Positions 1,622 to 55,161 of a DNA stretch of 64,000 nucleotides are shown here, one piece after another. The notes below the pieces were generated by a model. It was not told the DNA's origin, made no database searches, and saw nothing but the letters and a program-made list of their open reading frames with translations. Origin of the DNA: an uncultured Gammaproteobacteria bacterium (lineage in GTDB: Bacteria; Patescibacteriota; Patescibacteriia; CAZSQN01); NCBI GenBank assembly GCA_964609095.1, contig CAZSQN010000002.1, positions 12,633-76,632 on the forward strand, written 5' to 3'. Numbering within the stretch: position 1 is the first letter of the stretch; each line of letters opens with the position of its first letter. The position numbers were made by a program, and so were the translations under genes.

Positions 1622-2701
1622 TTATTCGCAAGGGTCGCGAATAAAGCCGTCAAGGCCTCTGGCCAGGATTTCCGCCGACTGGCCAAAGGAAAGAACTCCG
1701 GCGCAAGCATTGTAATCGCTTCCGTATTCCACAGGAGCGACAAACATCAAGCTCTCGCCGTGGGTGAGCGAAGCGCACATCGTCTCCTGGCTCACGGGCG
1801 AAAGGCCGAAATTCTGACGGTAACTTTGGCCTTCCTCGTCAGTAAGGCCGATCATAATGCGGTTGCTGCCGGCTCTCCAAGAGAGCGGGAGCTCATCGCT
1901 TGCGATTTCATAGACCGCGTCATACATTGGCTCATCGCCTTGAAGCGCGGAATGAAGATTCGCGGCCATTTCCCGAAATGTCTCAAAGTCCGCGAAATCG
2001 CTGTAGACGGACGGCCGTCCGTCCAGCTCGTAATCAGGCACGAGCACTATGGCGAACCTGTACCCATCTCCGGAAAAACGGTCAGAGACGGCAGAAAGCG
2101 CGTCCAAGACCGCCGGCATATCGCGAGCCATGGAGCCGGAAACATCAACAAAGAAAACGACATCGTACGCGGTATTGGAGGCATAAACGCAGAACCCGTC
2201 CGCGTTTACGGCGCCATCAACGCACTTATCGCAATCATTGTCAATCGCGTCGCAAGCAAGCGTACCCTGCTCGGCAACACAGCCAAGGTTGGCGCACCTG
2301 CCCTCAACGCAACCGCTGCCCTCGCCGCACTCGTGGTCAAACTCGCACACGGTTCCCCGCGCGTCCGTTGGCACGCACCGGCCGAACTTGCAGTCAAAAC
2401 CGTTCTTGCAAGAGCCGATGCGGAACATGCACTCCGCGTCATTGTCACCGCAATCGCCGACCGAAATCTCGCCCGCATCATCGCCTTTGAGAAGCCCGCA
2501 CTGGCACCTGCCATCCGCGCATTCGTCAGTGTCGTCGGCATCGCAAGCAAACTCGGCAAAACCGCAATTGTTAAAATCAGAATCCAAGTTCATCGGAACC
2601 GGCAGTGTTTCCGAAACCAACATCGTCTCCGGCTCTTCTTCGGGAATACCAACGGCGCAGCTGGAAGCGAGAAAAACGAAAAATAGGGCATAGCGGTTCA
2701 T
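1622..2701 (-). CDS. secreted cysteine-rich vWA domain protein, paralog of 263..1503
   Basis: signal peptide MNRYALFFVFLASSCAVG; MIDAS motif VVFFVDVSGSMARDM; CDAIDNDCD repeats; AAAGGAGAAAG SD before ATG; plus-strand ORFs 1760..2686 etc. are GC-rich antisense artefacts. Confidence 0.7.
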   Translation of the reverse strand: MNRYALFFVFLASSCAVGIPEEEPETMLVSETLPVPMNLDSDFNNCGFAEFACDADDTDECADGRCQCGLLKGDDAGEISVGDCGDNDAECMFRIGSCKNGFDCKFGRCVPTDARGTVCEFDHECGEGSGCVEGRCANLGCVAEQGTLACDAIDNDCDKCVDGAVNADGFCVYASNTAYDVVFFVDVSGSMARDMPAVLDALSAVSDRFSGDGYRFAIVLVPDYELDGRPSVYSDFADFETFREMAANLHSALQGDEPMYDAVYEIASDELPLSWRAGSNRIMIGLTDEEGQSYRQNFGLSPVSQETMCASLTHGESLMFVAPVEYGSDYNACAGVLSFGQSAEILARGLDGFIRDPCE

Positions 2702-7663: not shown

Positions 7664-8266
7664 ATGAAAAATTTTTCTCCCGCCATTCAAGAATTGCTTC
7701 GGTTTCTTAATAATCTTCCCGGCGTCGGGCCTAAAACCGCCCGCCGCTATCTTTTTCATCTGCTGCGCGAGCCGCCTTTGGAGCTGCAACGCTTTGCCGC
7801 CGCCATTGGCGGCATCCCCAATGAGCTTGCCGTCTGCGGCAGGTGCGGCGATTATTCTCAAAAAAATCCCTGCGAACTCTGTTCCGACAGCCGCCGCGAC
7901 AAAACGCTTTTAGCCGTTGTCGCCGACAACCAGGACCTTGGCGCCATGGAATCAACCGGGGAATTCCAAGGGCTTTATCATATTTTGGGCGGAGCGCTTT
8001 CTCCGCTCCAGGGCATAACGCCGGAGAGATTGCGCGTCAAAGAGCTTCTCCTAAGAGCCAAAGAAGACAAAATTACGGAAATTTTGCTGGCTTTTGACCC
8101 GGACATTGACGGCGAGTCCACCATGCTCTACTTGGGGAAACTTCTTTATCCGCTGGGCGTAAAAGTGACTCGTTTGGCGCGCGGGCTGCCGATGGGAAGC
8201 AACTTGGAATACGCCGACCCGATAACATTGACGGACGCCATCAAAGGGCGGCGCGCCATAAACTAA
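7664..8266 (+). CDS. recR: recombination protein RecR
   Basis: starts 5 bp after the dnaB stop at the ATG inside the longer ORF 7454..8266; HhH NLPGVGPKTARRYLFHLL; C4 zinc finger CGRCGDYSQKNPCELC; Toprim domain. Confidence 0.9.
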   Translation: MKNFSPAIQELLRFLNNLPGVGPKTARRYLFHLLREPPLELQRFAAAIGGIPNELAVCGRCGDYSQKNPCELCSDSRRDKTLLAVVADNQDLGAMESTGEFQGLYHILGGALSPLQGITPERLRVKELLLRAKEDKITEILLAFDPDIDGESTMLYLGKLLYPLGVKVTRLARGLPMGSNLEYADPITLTDAIKGRRAIN

Positions 8267-8680: not shown

Positions 8681-9166
8681 CTAATCCCTGTCAATCTTTA
8701 TCTCATCTCCTATCTTCCAGCGCCGCAACGCCGCTCCTCCGGAGGCAATTTCTAAAACAAAATCCGCTTCCTCTCTTGGAATCAATACTTGCGGGTCGCT
8801 TCCCGCTATCGGCGGCGCGGCGCCGGGAGCGATATCAACAATCTTATTTCCGTTAATCCAGATAATATCTATGGCAAAATTCATCCCTTTCATCCAAAAC
8901 GGATGGCGACCCGAAGTTGGAAAAACAAAAAGCATGCCTCTTCCCGGCGGCATCTCCGTCCTTCCGGAAAGCCCTTTCTCGCGCGCGCTCTGGCTGCCGG
9001 CGACTTCGGCAACAATCCGGTCTCCGTTAATTTCCACCATCGCTTCTTTCAGGTGATTTTGCTTATAGCGCAAAAAAACAGCCAGCCCAAGCACGACAAA
9101 CGCCAATCCTAAATAAAATTTCATTTTCATATCAAAGTTATGTGCGGGACTTAATTCTTTTTTCAA
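8681..9166 (-). CDS. DUF192 (COG1430) domain membrane-anchored protein
   Basis: N-terminal TM, then GMLFVFP...HPFWMKGMNFAIDIIWIN...FVLEIASG, typical of DUF192; the true start may be the internal Met at about 9124-9130 because 9138-9166 overlaps the upstream gene. Confidence 0.6.
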   Translation of the reverse strand: MKKELSPAHNFDMKMKFYLGLAFVVLGLAVFLRYKQNHLKEAMVEINGDRIVAEVAGSQSAREKGLSGRTEMPPGRGMLFVFPTSGRHPFWMKGMNFAIDIIWINGNKIVDIAPGAAPPIAGSDPQVLIPREEADFVLEIASGGAALRRWKIGDEIKIDRD

Positions 9167-10205
9167 TAATTGACAAGGCGGCTAAAAAAATAACGGCTAA
9201 TAAAATAATGACAATCATCTTCCATCCGGTTCCCAAAAACCAGCTTGCGCCGCCAAAACCGGCCGCGAATAAATAATAAAACATTACCGCTTGGCGCTCC
9301 GACAAGCCGGCGTCAATCAGGCGAAAATGCAAATGTTCTCTTCCGCTTTCGGTTATTTTTTTTCCGCTTCTCCATCTTTTTATAATAACGGTCGCCACAT
9401 CAAGCACGGGCACGCCCATAACCAAAAGCGTGGTGGCGACTTTGGTGCCGGCGGCAATGGCCAGAGAGCCGATTAAAAACCCGGCGATAGTGCTTCCCCC
9501 CTCGCCCAAAAAAATGCGCGCCGGATGAAAATTCCAAAACAAAAATCCGGTAAAAACCGCGGCTAAAATCCCCGCGAGCATCGCCGTCTGCGGCTGGTTA
9601 AGCTCCGGCCGCAGAGCTATTGCCGCTATAAAAATAGCGGCAACGGCGGCTATGCCGGCAGAAAGCCCGTCCAAGCCGTCAAGAAGTTTTGTCGTGTAAA
9701 TCATTCCCAAAAGCCACAAAAATGAAAGGACATCGGCTGGCAACAAAAAATTCCAAATTCCAAATCCTAAATTCCAAATTCCAAGGTTTATGACTCCGCC
9801 AAACGGATTCTTAATTTCCGTAAAATGTATTCCACCGGCCACCGCAAGGCCGGCTGCCAAAATCGGAAAAATAATTTGTATTTTTGGCCGCAGATTAAAC
9901 TTGTCGTCTAAAATTCCGCCGGCAATTAAAATCGCGCCTCCGGCGGCAAGAGCCAAAAATTGTTTTAAATGAATATAACCGCTTGGGATAAATCCTTTGT
10001 AGAAAAGATAGGCCGCGATTCCGAAAAAAGATAAATAAATCGCCAAGCCGCCCAAGAGCGGTATTGCCCTTTCGTGTTTTTTCCTGCCGCCAAAATCAGG
10101 CGCGTCAACAAAACGCGCCCGAAGCGCCGCCTGCCTTATAAGCCCCGTCGCCCACAAGGAAAGTAAAACGGAAATTAAAAGTAAAAAAATTATATTTGAA
10201 CTCAT
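9138..10205 (-). CDS. glycosyltransferase family 4, MraY/WecA-type polyprenol-phosphate sugar-1-phosphate transferase
   Basis: start at the internal ATG giving MSSNIIF; VDAPDFGGRKKHERAIPLLGG, ILDD and LDGLDGLSAG motifs; contains an in-frame (ATTCCAA)5 heptamer repeat at 9746-9785 encoding IWNLGFGIWNF. Confidence 0.7.
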   Translation of the reverse strand: MSSNIIFLLLISVLLSLWATGLIRQAALRARFVDAPDFGGRKKHERAIPLLGGLAIYLSFFGIAAYLFYKGFIPSGYIHLKQFLALAAGGAILIAGGILDDKFNLRPKIQIIFPILAAGLAVAGGIHFTEIKNPFGGVINLGIWNLGFGIWNFLLPADVLSFLWLLGMIYTTKLLDGLDGLSAGIAAVAAIFIAAIALRPELNQPQTAMLAGILAAVFTGFLFWNFHPARIFLGEGGSTIAGFLIGSLAIAAGTKVATTLLVMGVPVLDVATVIIKRWRSGKKITESGREHLHFRLIDAGLSERQAVMFYYLFAAGFGGASWFLGTGWKMIVIILLAVIFLAALSIIEKRIKSRT

Positions 10206-10433: not shown

Positions 10434-10763
10434 ATGATGGTTTATTTGGTATTGACGCTTGTTTCGTTGGGCGCGGCTCTTGGTCTTTTTTTGGCAATTG
10501 CCGTTGCCGGCTATTATCTGCGGCGCGAACCGTGCAAACCGCCGGAGTACCACAAATCATTTGGCTGGCTCTATACCCTCGCGGGAACGGCGCTCACCGC
10601 AAGCATCGGCGCGAACTTCAAACTTCACGCTCTTGCCAGAACAGCTCGCCCGTTCTCTCCGGACTGGACAGTGGTGGCTTTAATTGTCGTTGCCGCGCTT
10701 CTCGCCTTGTACCATTTTCGCAAAGCGGCCCGGCTTGCGCCAAGACGCAAGCCAATGGCTTAA
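10434..10763 (+). CDS. small membrane protein (2-3 TM), paralog family A
   Basis: 109 aa hydrophobic; shares P-EH(K)-GWL-G-TA-LLA-F pattern with the adjacent 10814..11113. Confidence 0.5.
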   Translation: MMVYLVLTLVSLGAALGLFLAIAVAGYYLRREPCKPPEYHKSFGWLYTLAGTALTASIGANFKLHALARTARPFSPDWTVVALIVVAALLALYHFRKAARLAPRRKPMA

Positions 10764-10813
10764 TTGTAATTATGATTAAGCCGTAAAGCAACTCTCGGAG
10801 AAAAGAGGCGCGG

Positions 10814-11113
10814 ATGGTTTTAACAGTATTGGTCATTCTCACTTTTGTTGCTCTCGCGGTTCTTTTACTCGCCGTTATGGTCTTGATGTTTAAGTACGGC
10901 AATTATCCATGGTCGCCCAAAGAGCACAAAAGAGTCGGCTGGCTCTGGATTGCCATTGGCGCCTGCGTCACCGCGCAAAATGTGATTGCCGCCTTGCTTG
11001 GAGTGTCTCTGCGATTGGTGCCGTTTCTGCTTGTGGCCGGAATCGCTCTCCTTGCATGGCTCCAATTCCGAAGAGCCAACAAGCTCATGCGGCCGTTAAA
11101 TAAAAATGAATAA
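10814..11113 (+). CDS. small membrane protein, tandem paralog of 10434..10763
   Basis: 99 aa; same architecture and conserved WSPKEHKRVGWLW block. Confidence 0.5.
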   Translation: MVLTVLVILTFVALAVLLLAVMVLMFKYGNYPWSPKEHKRVGWLWIAIGACVTAQNVIAALLGVSLRLVPFLLVAGIALLAWLQFRRANKLMRPLNKNE

Positions 11114-11147: not shown

Positions 11148-11868
11148 ATCTCGTCCCTACACGGGTTGCGGAAAGAGTGTAGCTGCCGCCTTCCTCTCCT
11201 CTCTCCGATATATTCATACACCGCAAGGTGTATGTTCCCGCGGAAAAGAAACGATAACGAATCGTGGCATTGCCAGACCAATCGTACAAATCGTGGTTTT
11301 GGAAAACATTGCCTTGCGCATCAGCAAGAACTAAACCGGAATAAAAGTTGCCGCTCTTAATCTTCAGCCGAAAGATAACATCATCTCCGGCTCTGGCGAA
11401 AAACTTCCAATCTTGGCTTAGCGGACCAGTACTTCTATTACTAACAGTTCCGCTCACGACCTTGTTCATTCCGAGCACTCGTTCATCAGTACCGTTCGCG
11501 CAGACCGGACAGGCGGAACACGCCCGCGCCGGAGCTGGCGCTGGCGCGTTGGTATCAAGCGCAACTCGCGAATGAAGATCGCGGGCAACTTCTTGCGCAA
11601 ACTCGCGGCGATATTGGCCGGCAACTCGCGACACGCGCCAAACAACTTTCCTAGAAATATCCTCAATCTGGTTCTCGTCCAGCGCTGAATTGTTTGACAT
11701 CACTCCGATAACCGTTGCCGGAATTATGCCAATCAGCAGATAGACGGCCACTCGCGGCCACTTGCGCAGCGCCGAGAATCGCCACATGAGCTTGTCGTTC
11801 TGCTCTCGCAGTTTCTCGTTCTCCGCCAAAAGCTTGGCAACTTCGTCGTTTCTGTACGGTGCGTCCAT
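11146..11868 (-). CDS. membrane-anchored protein with N-terminal coiled coil and C-terminal pre-peptidase C-terminal (PPC)-like beta domain, paralog B1
   Basis: N-terminal 23 aa MDAPYRNDEVAKLLAENEKLREQ identical to 11923..12666; one TM; C-terminal DDVIFRL...GTYTLRC...GSYTLSA pattern typical of PPC domains. Confidence 0.6.
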   Translation of the reverse strand: MDAPYRNDEVAKLLAENEKLREQNDKLMWRFSALRKWPRVAVYLLIGIIPATVIGVMSNNSALDENQIEDISRKVVWRVSRVAGQYRREFAQEVARDLHSRVALDTNAPAPAPARACSACPVCANGTDERVLGMNKVVSGTVSNRSTGPLSQDWKFFARAGDDVIFRLKIKSGNFYSGLVLADAQGNVFQNHDLYDWSGNATIRYRFFSAGTYTLRCMNISERGEEGGSYTLSATRVGTR

Positions 11869-45544: not shown

Positions 45545-45615
45545 GCGGGTGTAGTATAGTGGTAGTACGCGACCTTCCCAAGGTTGTGGTGTGGGTTCGA
45601 TTCCCATCACCCGCT
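45545..45615 (+). tRNA. tRNA-Gly (anticodon CCC)
   Basis: acceptor GCGGGTG/CACCCGC, anticodon loop uuCCCaa, T-arm GTGGG-TTCGATT-CCCAT; no encoded CCA. Confidence 0.75.
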
Positions 45616-45737
45616 TAGATCTTACGGGAATCGAAGGACGCGAGATAAACCGAGCTGGCGCAGGTTTTGGCGCGCAGCGTCCAGGCTCGAGTCGGAGCGA
45701 GAGGATTCCCATCACCCGCTTAGATTTTACGGGAATC
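45599..45737 (+). repeat. tRNA-Gly 3'-end direct duplication (34-bp DR at 45599-45632 and 45704-45737) bracketing a conserved 71-bp insert
   Basis: DR = GATTCCCATCACCCGCTTAGAT(C/T)TTACGGGAATC, comprising the tRNA 3' 16 nt plus 17 nt of downstream hairpin; the insert ends ...CCAGGCTCGAGTCGGAGCGAGAGG and is homologous to the insert at the tRNA-Lys locus. Confidence 0.6.
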
Positions 45738-45755: not shown

Positions 45756-45831
45756 GCCGATGTAGCTCAGCTGGTAGAGCAGCGCTTTCGTAAAGCGAAG
45801 GTCGCCGGTTCGATCCCGGCCATCGGCTCCA
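45756..45831 (+). tRNA. tRNA-Thr (anticodon CGU), CCA encoded
   Basis: GCCGATGTAGCTCAGCTGGTAGAGCAGCGCTTTCGTAAAGCGAAGGTCGCCGGTTCGATCCCGGCCATCGGCTCCA, closely resembling canonical bacterial tRNA-Thr(CGU). Confidence 0.8.
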
Positions 45832-54726: not shown

Positions 54727-54812
54727 TTTCTAACCTCCTAAAAGAATGATAGTATAAAAATAAAATTATTTCAACGCGCTCTCGCGTCTTTTAATCTCTA
54801 ATCCTCAATAAA

Positions 54813-55002
54813 GAAAACACTCCGCTTATGGCGGAGTGTAATCATATGACCCGGCTGGGATTCCTCTCGCTCCGACTCGAGCCTGGGCGCTATGCACTAA
54901 ACGCTCGCCAGCTCGCATTTACTCGCACTCTTCGAATCCCAATTCTATTTTGAAAACACTCCGCTTATGGCGGAGTGTAATCATATGACCCGGCTGGGAT
55001 TC
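54813..55002 (-). repeat. tRNA-Lys 3'-end direct duplication (51-bp DR at 54813-54863 and 54952-55002) bracketing an 88-bp insert homologous to the tRNA-Gly-locus insert
   Basis: DR = GAAAACACTCCGCTTATGGCGGAGTGTAATCATATGACCCGGCTGGGATTC, comprising the tRNA 3' 17 nt plus a downstream terminator hairpin; insert (minus-strand sense) ...GCGAGCTGGCGAGCGTTTAGTGCATAGCGCCCAGGCTCGAGTCGGAGCGAGAG. Confidence 0.6.
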
Positions 55003-55058
55003 GAACCCAGGACCCAATGCTTAAAAGGCATTTGCTCTGCCAACTGAGCTACCGGGTC
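54986..55058 (-). tRNA. tRNA-Lys (anticodon UUU)
   Basis: GACCCGGTAGCTCAGTTGGCAGAGCAAATGCCTTTTAAGCATTGGGTCCTGGGTTCGAATCCCAGCCGGGTCA: acceptor GACCCGG/CCGGGTC, anticodon loop cuUUUaa, canonical T-arm. Confidence 0.75.
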
Positions 55059-55161
55059 AAACATAAAAAATATTAGCAAAAAATGTTTATTTAATCAAGA
55101 AAAGATAAAAAAACCAAGGCAAATGCCTTGGTCTGTTTTTCTCTGAAAAAATGAACCGTTC

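Follow-up and report, generated by a model that had tools for sequence, protein, structure and literature searches.

A structured insert clamped by tRNA-derived arms at tRNA genes of Patescibacteria: a candidate end module of recombinase-less insertion units at the T-loop

To our knowledge, little is known of how bacteria of the Candidate Phyla Radiation (CPR), with their tiny genomes, acquire genes. The 64,000-nucleotide (nt) stretch of DNA analysed here (the window), from a genome of Candidatus Uhrbacteria, carries two copies of a short structured element, termed type A, downstream of intact genes for tRNA-Gly(CCC) and tRNA-Lys(UUU). In each copy a conserved core is preceded by an inverted copy of part of its own tRNA gene, the arm, and followed by a second copy of the 3' end of that gene; a structured insert clamped by tRNA-derived arms in this way was absent from all libraries and literature searched. 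The interpretation put forward here, held tentatively and at slightly less than an even chance, is that the element is the cis-acting end module of recombinase-less insertion units that sit in the T-loop (between nucleotides 57 and 58) of Patescibacteria tRNA genes.

A preceding sequence-only reading of the window had noted direct repeats at both tRNA genes, inserts between them that resembled each other at about 75% identity, and a 24-mer shared by the insert ends, and each of these observations was reproduced. The Gly repeat is 34 nt long (the last 17 nt of the tRNA and 17 nt of trailer) with an offset of 105 nt, and its two copies match exactly over 21 nt before a single C/T mismatch; the Lys repeat is 51 nt long, exact, and includes the tRNA 3' part and a terminator hairpin. 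Both repeats start at the identical tRNA position, G57/A58 of the T-loop. The Gly and Lys inserts align at 81% identity (61 of 75 columns). Both end in the 24-mer CCAGGCTCGAGTCGGAGCGAGAGG, which has two exact occurrences in the window, at 45681-45704 on the plus strand and 54863-54886 on the minus strand, and which was matched in none of 100 shuffles even with three mismatches allowed. The two loci comprise the following features.

45545-45615, plus strand: intact tRNA-Gly(CCC) gene (ARAGORN; Rfam tRNA, 67.1 bits)
45599-45632, plus strand: first copy of the Gly direct repeat, from tRNA position 57 to the 3' end, then TAGATCTTAC, then GGGAATC (sequence)
45626-45635, plus strand: Gly 5' arm GGGAATCGAA, the 5' strand of stem P1 (sequence; P1 pairing statistics)
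45631-45704, plus strand: Gly type A core, TCGAAG...GAGAGG (covariance-model match 45619-45716, 82.5 bits; covariation; fold)
45636-45641 with 45677-45682, plus strand: stem P2 of the Gly core (covariation; fold)
45647-45651 with 45663-45667, plus strand: stem P3 of the Gly core (covariation; fold)
45704-45737, plus strand: second copy of the Gly direct repeat, namely the displaced tRNA-Gly 3' fragment (the 3' strand of P1), TAGATTTTAC and a second GGGAATC arm
45756-45831, plus strand: tRNA-Thr(CGU) gene (ARAGORN)
54985-55059, minus strand: intact tRNA-Lys(UUU) gene (ARAGORN; Rfam)
54952-55002, minus strand: first copy of the Lys direct repeat, from tRNA position 57 to the 3' end, with a hairpin followed by a poor T tract (TTTCAAAA)
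54931-54941, minus strand: Lys 5' arm TGGGATTCGAA (sequence)
54863-54935, minus strand: Lys type A core (covariance-model match 54851-54947, 77.1 bits; fold; covariation)
54930-54925 with 54890-54885, minus strand: stem P2 of the Lys core (covariation; fold)
54920-54915 with 54904-54899, minus strand: stem P3 of the Lys core (covariation; fold)
54813-54863, minus strand: second copy of the Lys direct repeat, the displaced tRNA-Lys 3' fragment with the same hairpin and a good T tract

The tRNA-derived inverted arm of each insert had been missed in the earlier reading. Each arm reverse-complements its own tRNA across the T-loop and the 3' strand of the T-stem: the Gly arm GGGAATCGAA complements TTCGATTCCC of tRNA-Gly, whose T-loop is TTCGATT, and the Lys arm TGGGATTCGAA complements the T-loop TTCGAAT and the T-stem 3' strand of tRNA-Lys. 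The arm pairs with the duplicated tRNA fragment 3' of the insert to form the hairpin P1, so that the core is the "loop" of a hairpin with a stem of tRNA sequence. The Gly core is 65% G+C (60-65% for cores overall), compared to 27% for the flanking intergenic DNA and 48% for the window. The interval from tRNA-Gly to tRNA-Thr contains no terminator-like site, placing the Gly element within a probable tRNA-Gly/tRNA-Thr co-transcript; at the Lys locus a terminator scan called the second hairpin copy and not the first, which has the poor T tract. Both window copies are best read as minimal units without cargo, placed for transcription with tRNA-Gly/tRNA-Thr and with tRNA-Lys. The second GGGAATC arm at 45731-45737 (plus strand), which follows the displaced tRNA-Gly fragment with no core behind it, recurs in L026, one of the relatives described below; an earlier unit may have left it as a footprint, or it may belong to the repeat. 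A hairpin ACGCGAGAGCGCGT at 54774-54787, just past the second Lys repeat, recalls P2 of the minimal type A form, and its similarity was not above chance when considered as a remnant of an older element (5 matches vs 1.5 expected).

Orthologous SurA-like/tRNA-Gly/tRNA-Thr/FtsE loci were fetched from three relatives by way of their FtsE homologues, which are 85-87% identical. The site is empty in L021, where a spacer of 28 nt between tRNA-Gly and tRNA-Thr contains no arm and no core, and a diverged type A element with the same trailer is present at the same spot in L024 and L026. Integration into tRNA 3' ends, as first proposed, is thereby upheld as regards an insertion-type duplication, with the crossover located in the T-loop and not simply at the 3' end. 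The direct repeats likewise agree with the attL/attR-type signature that had been suggested, but the tRNA-specific inverted arm is not predicted by a plain attL/attR model, and site-specific recombination is a putative origin of the arrangement. The cores of L024 and L026 are 74% and 67% identical to the window Gly copy, respectively, while the spacer DNA beside them shows no similarity recognizable by eye and the tRNA-Gly genes are identical at 59-64 of 71 positions; the orthologous cores are thus far better conserved than the neighbouring spacer. The segments UCGAAG, CCAGGCUC and GCGAGAGG are retained in both. These two are the only independent orthologous copies obtained, and as they were found independently of the 21-mer search described below, their changes in the 24-mer (4 of 24 positions in L026, approximately 8 in L024) indicate that its invariance in the loci found by that search is partly an artefact of the search. 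The similarity between the window Gly and Lys copies (81%) exceeds that of the Gly copy to its orthologues, which indicates exchange or spread of the element within the genome. At the tRNA-Lys locus, the flanking 193-aa protein used in looking for orthologues had no homologues in the database. In L024 the neighbouring gene has a tRNA 3'-replacement scar of another kind (~2030-2090, reverse strand): a second 3' part of tRNA-Thr, starting in the anticodon loop, stands 13 nt behind the tRNA-Thr gene. L026 has an additional odd tRNA-Thr-like copy.

Further members of the family were sought by a single scan each of a genome and a metagenome collection with an exact 21-mer, which returned one genome contig (L001) and 17 metagenome contigs; of the latter, L006 and L008 match by chance within coding sequence and several others are duplicates. 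Other tRNA genes, which the earlier reading had proposed to check, carry the same core: it lies beside at least nine tRNA species in 16 contigs besides the window, its partners including tRNA-Lys(CUU), Asn, Gln, Tyr, Ser (two kinds) and Arg, and the contigs derive from peat-, lake- and groundwater-type samples. In its minimal form, type A is ~50 nt long, TCGAAG-GGCGCGAGAGCGCGCAGCGCC-C(A/C)GGCTCGAGTCGGAGCGAGAGG. At the eight loci with a comparable intact upstream tRNA the arm is the reverse complement of local tRNA positions 54 to 65-67 (9 to 14 nt); in L011, which is not among the eight, it corresponds to a partial tRNA-Ser copy located upstream. In every type A copy the core is succeeded by a tRNA 3' fragment, the inner boundaries are precise in all copies, the direct repeats begin at G57/A58 at all loci, and every copy is in tRNA orientation. 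One contig, L018, belongs to Candidatus Nealsonbacteria, and an hsdR resembling that of L004 is present in Candidatus Taylorbacteria. The sole match in the genome collection, L001, is a metagenome-assembled genome labelled "uncultured Gammaproteobacteria"; its element and tRNA context resemble the Patescibacteria loci, and it is possibly mis-binned. Among the 4,227 families of Rfam 15, only tRNAs were found in the window and nothing relevant for the element up to an E-value of 10. IMG/VR, a phage collection and a plasmid collection contained no meaningful match to the element, and a full-text literature search retrieved no description of such an element.

Several other inserts share this layout. 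Type B inserts (L009 748-860, plus strand; L001 6714-6833, minus strand) are purine-rich, structured and ~90-100 nt long, start with TCGAA(C/A)GCCGGAGCG, and are clamped by the same tRNA-derived inverted arm and tRNA 3' fragment; they fold well below shuffled controls (z = -5.1 and -3.0). Types D and C, with the same arm-insert-fragment layout, were found in L007 at 8812-8925, ~8985-9100 and ~9405-9545 (plus strand), where the arrays behind tRNA-Arg and tRNA-Lys consist of these inserts and type A in alternation. In L018 the same ~90-nt trailer (ACGTAATAAATTTTGCTTTAGGCAAAATTTAAACGTGG...) follows three different tRNA 3' ends (10590-10640, 10765-10850 and 11300-11390, plus strand), and a small open reading frame (ORF) between tRNA-Asp and tRNA-Ser has a GIY-YIG-type look, judging its translation by eye.

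The structure and covariance analysis that had been proposed for the insert was carried out with 15-16 distinct copies, 500 shuffles and slid controls. P2 (GGGCGC/GCGCCC) is paired in 98% of cells. Changes on both sides have occurred in four of the six P2 pairs, as in the variants GGACGC/GCGTCC, GGGCTT/AAGCCC, GGGAGC/GCTCCC and GGGCGT/ACGCCC; P1 is paired in 86-87% of cells. Neither the observed pairing nor the observed covariation score was reached by any of the 500 shuffles, and pairing dropped to ~50% in the slid controls. Some copies, including both in the window, have an extra hairpin, P3, within the P2 loop. Its sequences diverge among the window Gly copy (AAACC/GGUUU), the window Lys copy (AAAUGC/GCGUUU), L024 (AAAACUGAC/GUCAGUUUU), L026 and L007 (GGACUGCC/GGCAGUCC), yet they pair every time. 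Single-sequence folds reproduce the same three-way junction, whose conserved nucleotides are UCGAAG, CCAGGCUC and GCGAGAGG. G-U pairs are more frequent than A-C mismatches on the tRNA-sense strand, and this mildly favours that strand as the one that folds, whether as RNA or as single-stranded DNA. Since compensatory changes maintain P2 and P3, the element is not a decaying scar. The "remnant or scar" of the earlier reading is accordingly disfavoured, as it also is by the better conservation of the orthologous cores relative to the spacer, while its "miniature non-autonomous tRNA-targeting element" and "tRNA-linked small RNA" are both still viable. A further hairpin proposed by RNAalifold, P4 (GCUC/GAGC, resembling a tRNA D-arm), is invariant in the copies found with the 21-mer and not compensated in L024 and L026, and is left unsupported.

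Versions of the element that carry genes were also found. In L009, tRNA-Gln and its terminator are followed by a type B insert with the same kind of arms, a tRNA fragment, an 11-kb type I restriction-modification (R-M) island (hsdM, hsdS, DUF4145, hsdR and two unknown ORFs), a type A element, and a tRNA fragment with the tRNA's original trailer. In L014, AAA_14/DUF4143, DUF559 and Mrr genes precede a LOOT RNA, a type A element with its tRNA fragment, an NYN-domain gene and a second type A element, after which come the same tRNA fragment with a repeat of ~100 nt and the chromosomal genes. L031, taken to be from the same lake population as L014 on the basis of neighbouring Joint Genome Institute ids of the sample series, has the L014 arrangement minus exactly the NYN unit. 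L007 has arrays of three element types behind two tRNAs (tRNA-Arg and tRNA-Lys). The cassette-like arrays of L009, L014 and L007 are all co-oriented with the tRNA. Larger versions with an integrase had been suggested as something to look for; the gene-carrying versions exist (L009, L014), and all of the five units observed with cargo lack an integrase, L009 being a whole island and L003, L004 and L014 partial ones. The only Phage_integrase match is a 281-aa Xer-like gene located 2.2 kb from a solo copy in L016, and nothing links this gene to the element. An all-against-all BLASTP of the ORFs from 12 loci and the window detected no shared neighbour protein, and no TnpB, IscB or IS110-type gene is near any copy. 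The rve (DDE) gene of L003 was considered as a partner and rejected, as it belongs to a separate insertion sequence (IS) with its own inverted repeats (7733-7752 and 8775-8794).

In L014 the LOOT RNA (RF03000; 3208-3333, plus strand; 49.4 bits, family threshold 46.4) immediately precedes a type A element, with an overlap confined to the first stem of that element; its position at the end of a cassette may be informative. A conserved segment termed E, ACGAGCGGAGCGAG...GCGAGCCAA-CTGC-TTGGCTCGC, lies just upstream of the type A arm in L003 (7495-7534, minus strand), L004, L009, L011 and L014; it goes with the versions that carry cargo, standing before the arm there, and the window copies lack it. 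A compensatory change in L014 (GGCAA/TTGCC) preserves the hairpin of E.

The extent of the inserted unit can be read from loci at which its two ends differ. Where the tRNA fragments are not the same (L007, L011), the arm agrees with the upstream, unit-borne fragment and not with the downstream one, and in L018 the trailer after the intact tRNA is unique while that after the displaced fragment is the one found behind other tRNAs in the genome. These observations suggest that a unit consists of a replacement tRNA 3' part, which would keep the tRNA intact, followed by a trailer or terminator, optional cargo, the inverted T-loop and T-stem arm and the structured core, and that the displaced original tRNA 3' part comes after the unit. 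The arm and the tRNA fragment would form P1 and thereby clamp a three-way junction, to which P2 (with P3 where present) and the conserved purine-rich strand contribute. On a single-stranded tRNA-sense strand, the arm-core-fragment hairpin would recreate the tRNA target duplex and could be used in its folded form, like integron attC and CTX-phage attP, as the recombination site of an enzyme encoded elsewhere and acting in trans. The anatomy, the conservation of folding, the polymorphism of insertions and cassettes and the lack of a recombinase in cis are direct observations, and the single-stranded recombination step and its enzyme are inferred. The smallest unit is ~88 nt (L016). Given the stiffness of DNA this is too short for a double-stranded circle, which argues for a single-stranded or RNA form, or for transfer by recombination from a donor chromosome.

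Several observations weigh against the proposal of a T-loop end module. No recombinase is tied to the element, and no circular or single-stranded intermediate was seen. One core is combined with arms specific for at least nine tRNAs, for which only modular exchange or gene conversion may be invoked. The 3' strand of the core is far more conserved than an attC loop requires and would be a better fit to an RNA tertiary motif or a protein site. The apparent invariance of that strand is partly built in by the 21-mer search. With the window copies 9 kb from each other and in opposite orientations, no single replication-strand bias suits both. Finally, the crossover that distinguishes L031 from L014 lies inside the ~100-nt downstream repeat, where plain homologous recombination would suffice. 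The proposal in its fullest form, a CPR integron-like cassette system in tRNA T-loops with a folded single-stranded hairpin and a recombinase elsewhere, alternatively or additionally with a three-way junction that represents a new class of self-cleaving or catalytic RNA, is offered as speculation with perhaps a modest chance of being correct.

The strongest alternative, itself possible though doubtful, is that the core is a functional small RNA, either a new self-cleaving ribozyme or a processing or insulating RNA, which would cut or fold the transcript at the junction of the insertion and the displaced fragment, with P1 as its closing stem. Hammerhead, twister and similar ribozymes occupy comparable places in integrated elements. 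The compact three-way junction with its conserved nucleotides and covarying stems is in keeping with such a role, as are the G+C-rich core within A+T-rich intergenic DNA, the constant tRNA orientation, orthologues conserved about as well as structured RNAs, and the position of the window copies inside probable tRNA transcripts, with a proper T tract at the second hairpin only in the Lys locus. No Rfam family matches the core even at the permissive E-value used, however, and the hammerhead CUGANGA core is absent. An RNA alone also explains neither the direct repeats nor the cargo, and would add to mobility and not replace it. The hammerhead itself was considered and set aside: the junction order P1-GAA-P2-C-P4-GAGAG-P1 is superficially of type II, and in addition to the missing core the A15.1-U16.1 pair is lacking. 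A kink-turn atop P1 was likewise rejected, as the tandem G-A pattern does not fit.

Ordinary tyrosine-integrase islands and their leftovers, resembling cis-mobilizable elements (CIMEs), would provide a more familiar origin, in which the core is the double-stranded attP arm region with protein sites such as GGAGCGAG and the integrase is supplied by a master element elsewhere. Direct repeats of tRNA 3' ends and tandem accretion, as in tycheposon arrays (bioRxiv 10.1101/2020.12.28.424599), are expected of such islands, and GCGAG/GGAGCGAG motifs occur repeatedly, both in the core and in segment E upstream of it. The compensatory changes in P2, P3 and the E hairpin, in contrast, reflect selection on folding and not on double-stranded sequence, and the target-derived inverted arm would have no role in a standard core site. 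Moreover, the sequence left of the crossover (GAGCGAGAGG) is unlike the tRNA sequence that it would have to mimic, units of ~88 nt cannot make double-stranded circles, and all five cargo-bearing units are without an integrase. We regard this explanation as improbable.

An origin without any mobile element would invoke local duplication, gene conversion or the formation of tRNA pseudogenes. The driving force would be the T-arm, whose palindrome TTCGAA could give rise to inverted template switches, and the insert would be spread by homologous exchange only. The greater likeness of the window paralogues compared to the orthologues and the L031 junction within a long repeat would both follow from this. 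What makes it very improbable is that a core with an identical 21-mer is found at at least nine tRNA species and in two contigs from different candidate phyla (Uhrbacteria and Nealsonbacteria), that the inner boundaries are precise in every copy, and that foreign cargo genes lie within the units. The least credible of the alternatives, with almost no weight in our judgement, is that the element guides a nuclease or recombinase in the manner of the TnpB omega-RNA or the IS110 bridge RNA, with the core as scaffold and the arms as guides: a scaffold followed by flanking target, the TTCG just 5' of the target in the intact tRNA gene and arms that match opposite DNA strands all recall such systems, but the intact tRNA restored by insertion would make the cell's own chromosome a target, the scaffold is only ~50 nt, no gene of these types is nearby, and there is no match in Rfam 15, which we take to include the known omega-RNA-type, HEARO-type, YrlA and LOOT models. 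An archaeal-type tRNA intron or split tRNA was rejected in view of the bacterial host and the already intact upstream tRNA, and transfer-messenger RNA (tmRNA) or permuted tmRNA gave trivial T-arm matches only.

The tRNA T-arm is among the most conserved sequences in biology. An inverted T-arm, a structured core and a tRNA 3' fragment could together be a simple signature for the boundaries of insertions in tRNA genes, and the insertions so marked include defence cassettes (type I R-M, Mrr, NYN) without a recombinase of their own. If the core is an RNA, it would represent an undescribed and widespread class of structured RNA with at least three sister families. In either case a covariance model would allow the direct annotation of island boundaries in CPR metagenome bins.

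In a miniature inverted-repeat transposable element (MITE), the inverted repeats would not vary with the tRNA as they do here, nor would direct repeats range from 17 to ~100 nt in place of a fixed length. The type A element differs from IS200/IS605 elements and the TnpB omega-RNA in having a tRNA-specific left end and direct repeats, with no such protein nearby. Self-cleaving ribozymes (hammerhead, twister, hatchet, pistol) are similar in size (50-90 nt), in their multi-stem form with conserved junction nucleotides, and in their occurrence at mobile-DNA edges near tRNA genes; the element differs in matching no Rfam 15 family and in the absence of hammerhead core motifs.

The element also has features of tRNA islands, tycheposon-like arrays and CIMEs. 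Arrays of tycheposons are separated by partial tRNAs (bioRxiv 10.1101/2020.12.28.424599). Common to these systems and the present one are partial tRNA direct repeats with a restored tRNA, tandem accumulation at one tRNA with the newer units nearest to it, defence and accessory cargo, and the existence of integrase-less derivatives. An integrase gene is usual beside the tRNA in islands, whereas the units seen here have none, and they have a conserved folded end module, a target-derived inverted arm and sizes down to ~88 nt. The integrative mobile elements exploiting Xer (IMEX) of the CTX-phage type, in which a folded attP is used by the host XerCD, share with the element the presence of inverted and direct target copies tens of bases apart at one junction only, and encode no recombinase in cis. 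Their target is dif, whereas all copies here are at tRNA T-loops, and neither filamentous-phage genes nor IMG/VR or phage-collection matches accompany the element.

Integron cassettes offer a further parallel. There as here (L009, L014, L007), co-oriented arrays are formed of promoter-poor, recombinase-less units, frequently with defence genes as cargo. The terminus of each unit is an imperfect hairpin with a folded, variable middle between its arms, successive units have the sequence 3' of the crossover in common, and in the stems it is the folding and not the primary sequence that is conserved. The anchor here is a tRNA T-loop and not an attI site beside intI, and no IntI-type integrase is adjacent to the elements. 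The genes upstream of the array-heading tRNA encode FtsE and a hypothetical protein in the window and a protein of the 23S rRNA intervening-sequence family in L009 (PF05635; 209-586, plus strand, directly upstream of tRNA-Gln), with no intI; PF05635 is the family to which the accessory proteins of diversity-generating retroelements belong. In place of the RYYYAAC/GTTRRRY boxes of attC, the arms are ...TCGAA and (G)A-N2-T-stem derived from the local tRNA, the middle holds a strongly conserved unpaired strand of ~24 nt, and the carried repeat is 17 to ~100 nt compared to 6-7 nt in integrons. If the folded-site mechanism proves true, the element would represent a second, independent invention of the integron logic, one that docks on the tRNA T-arm.

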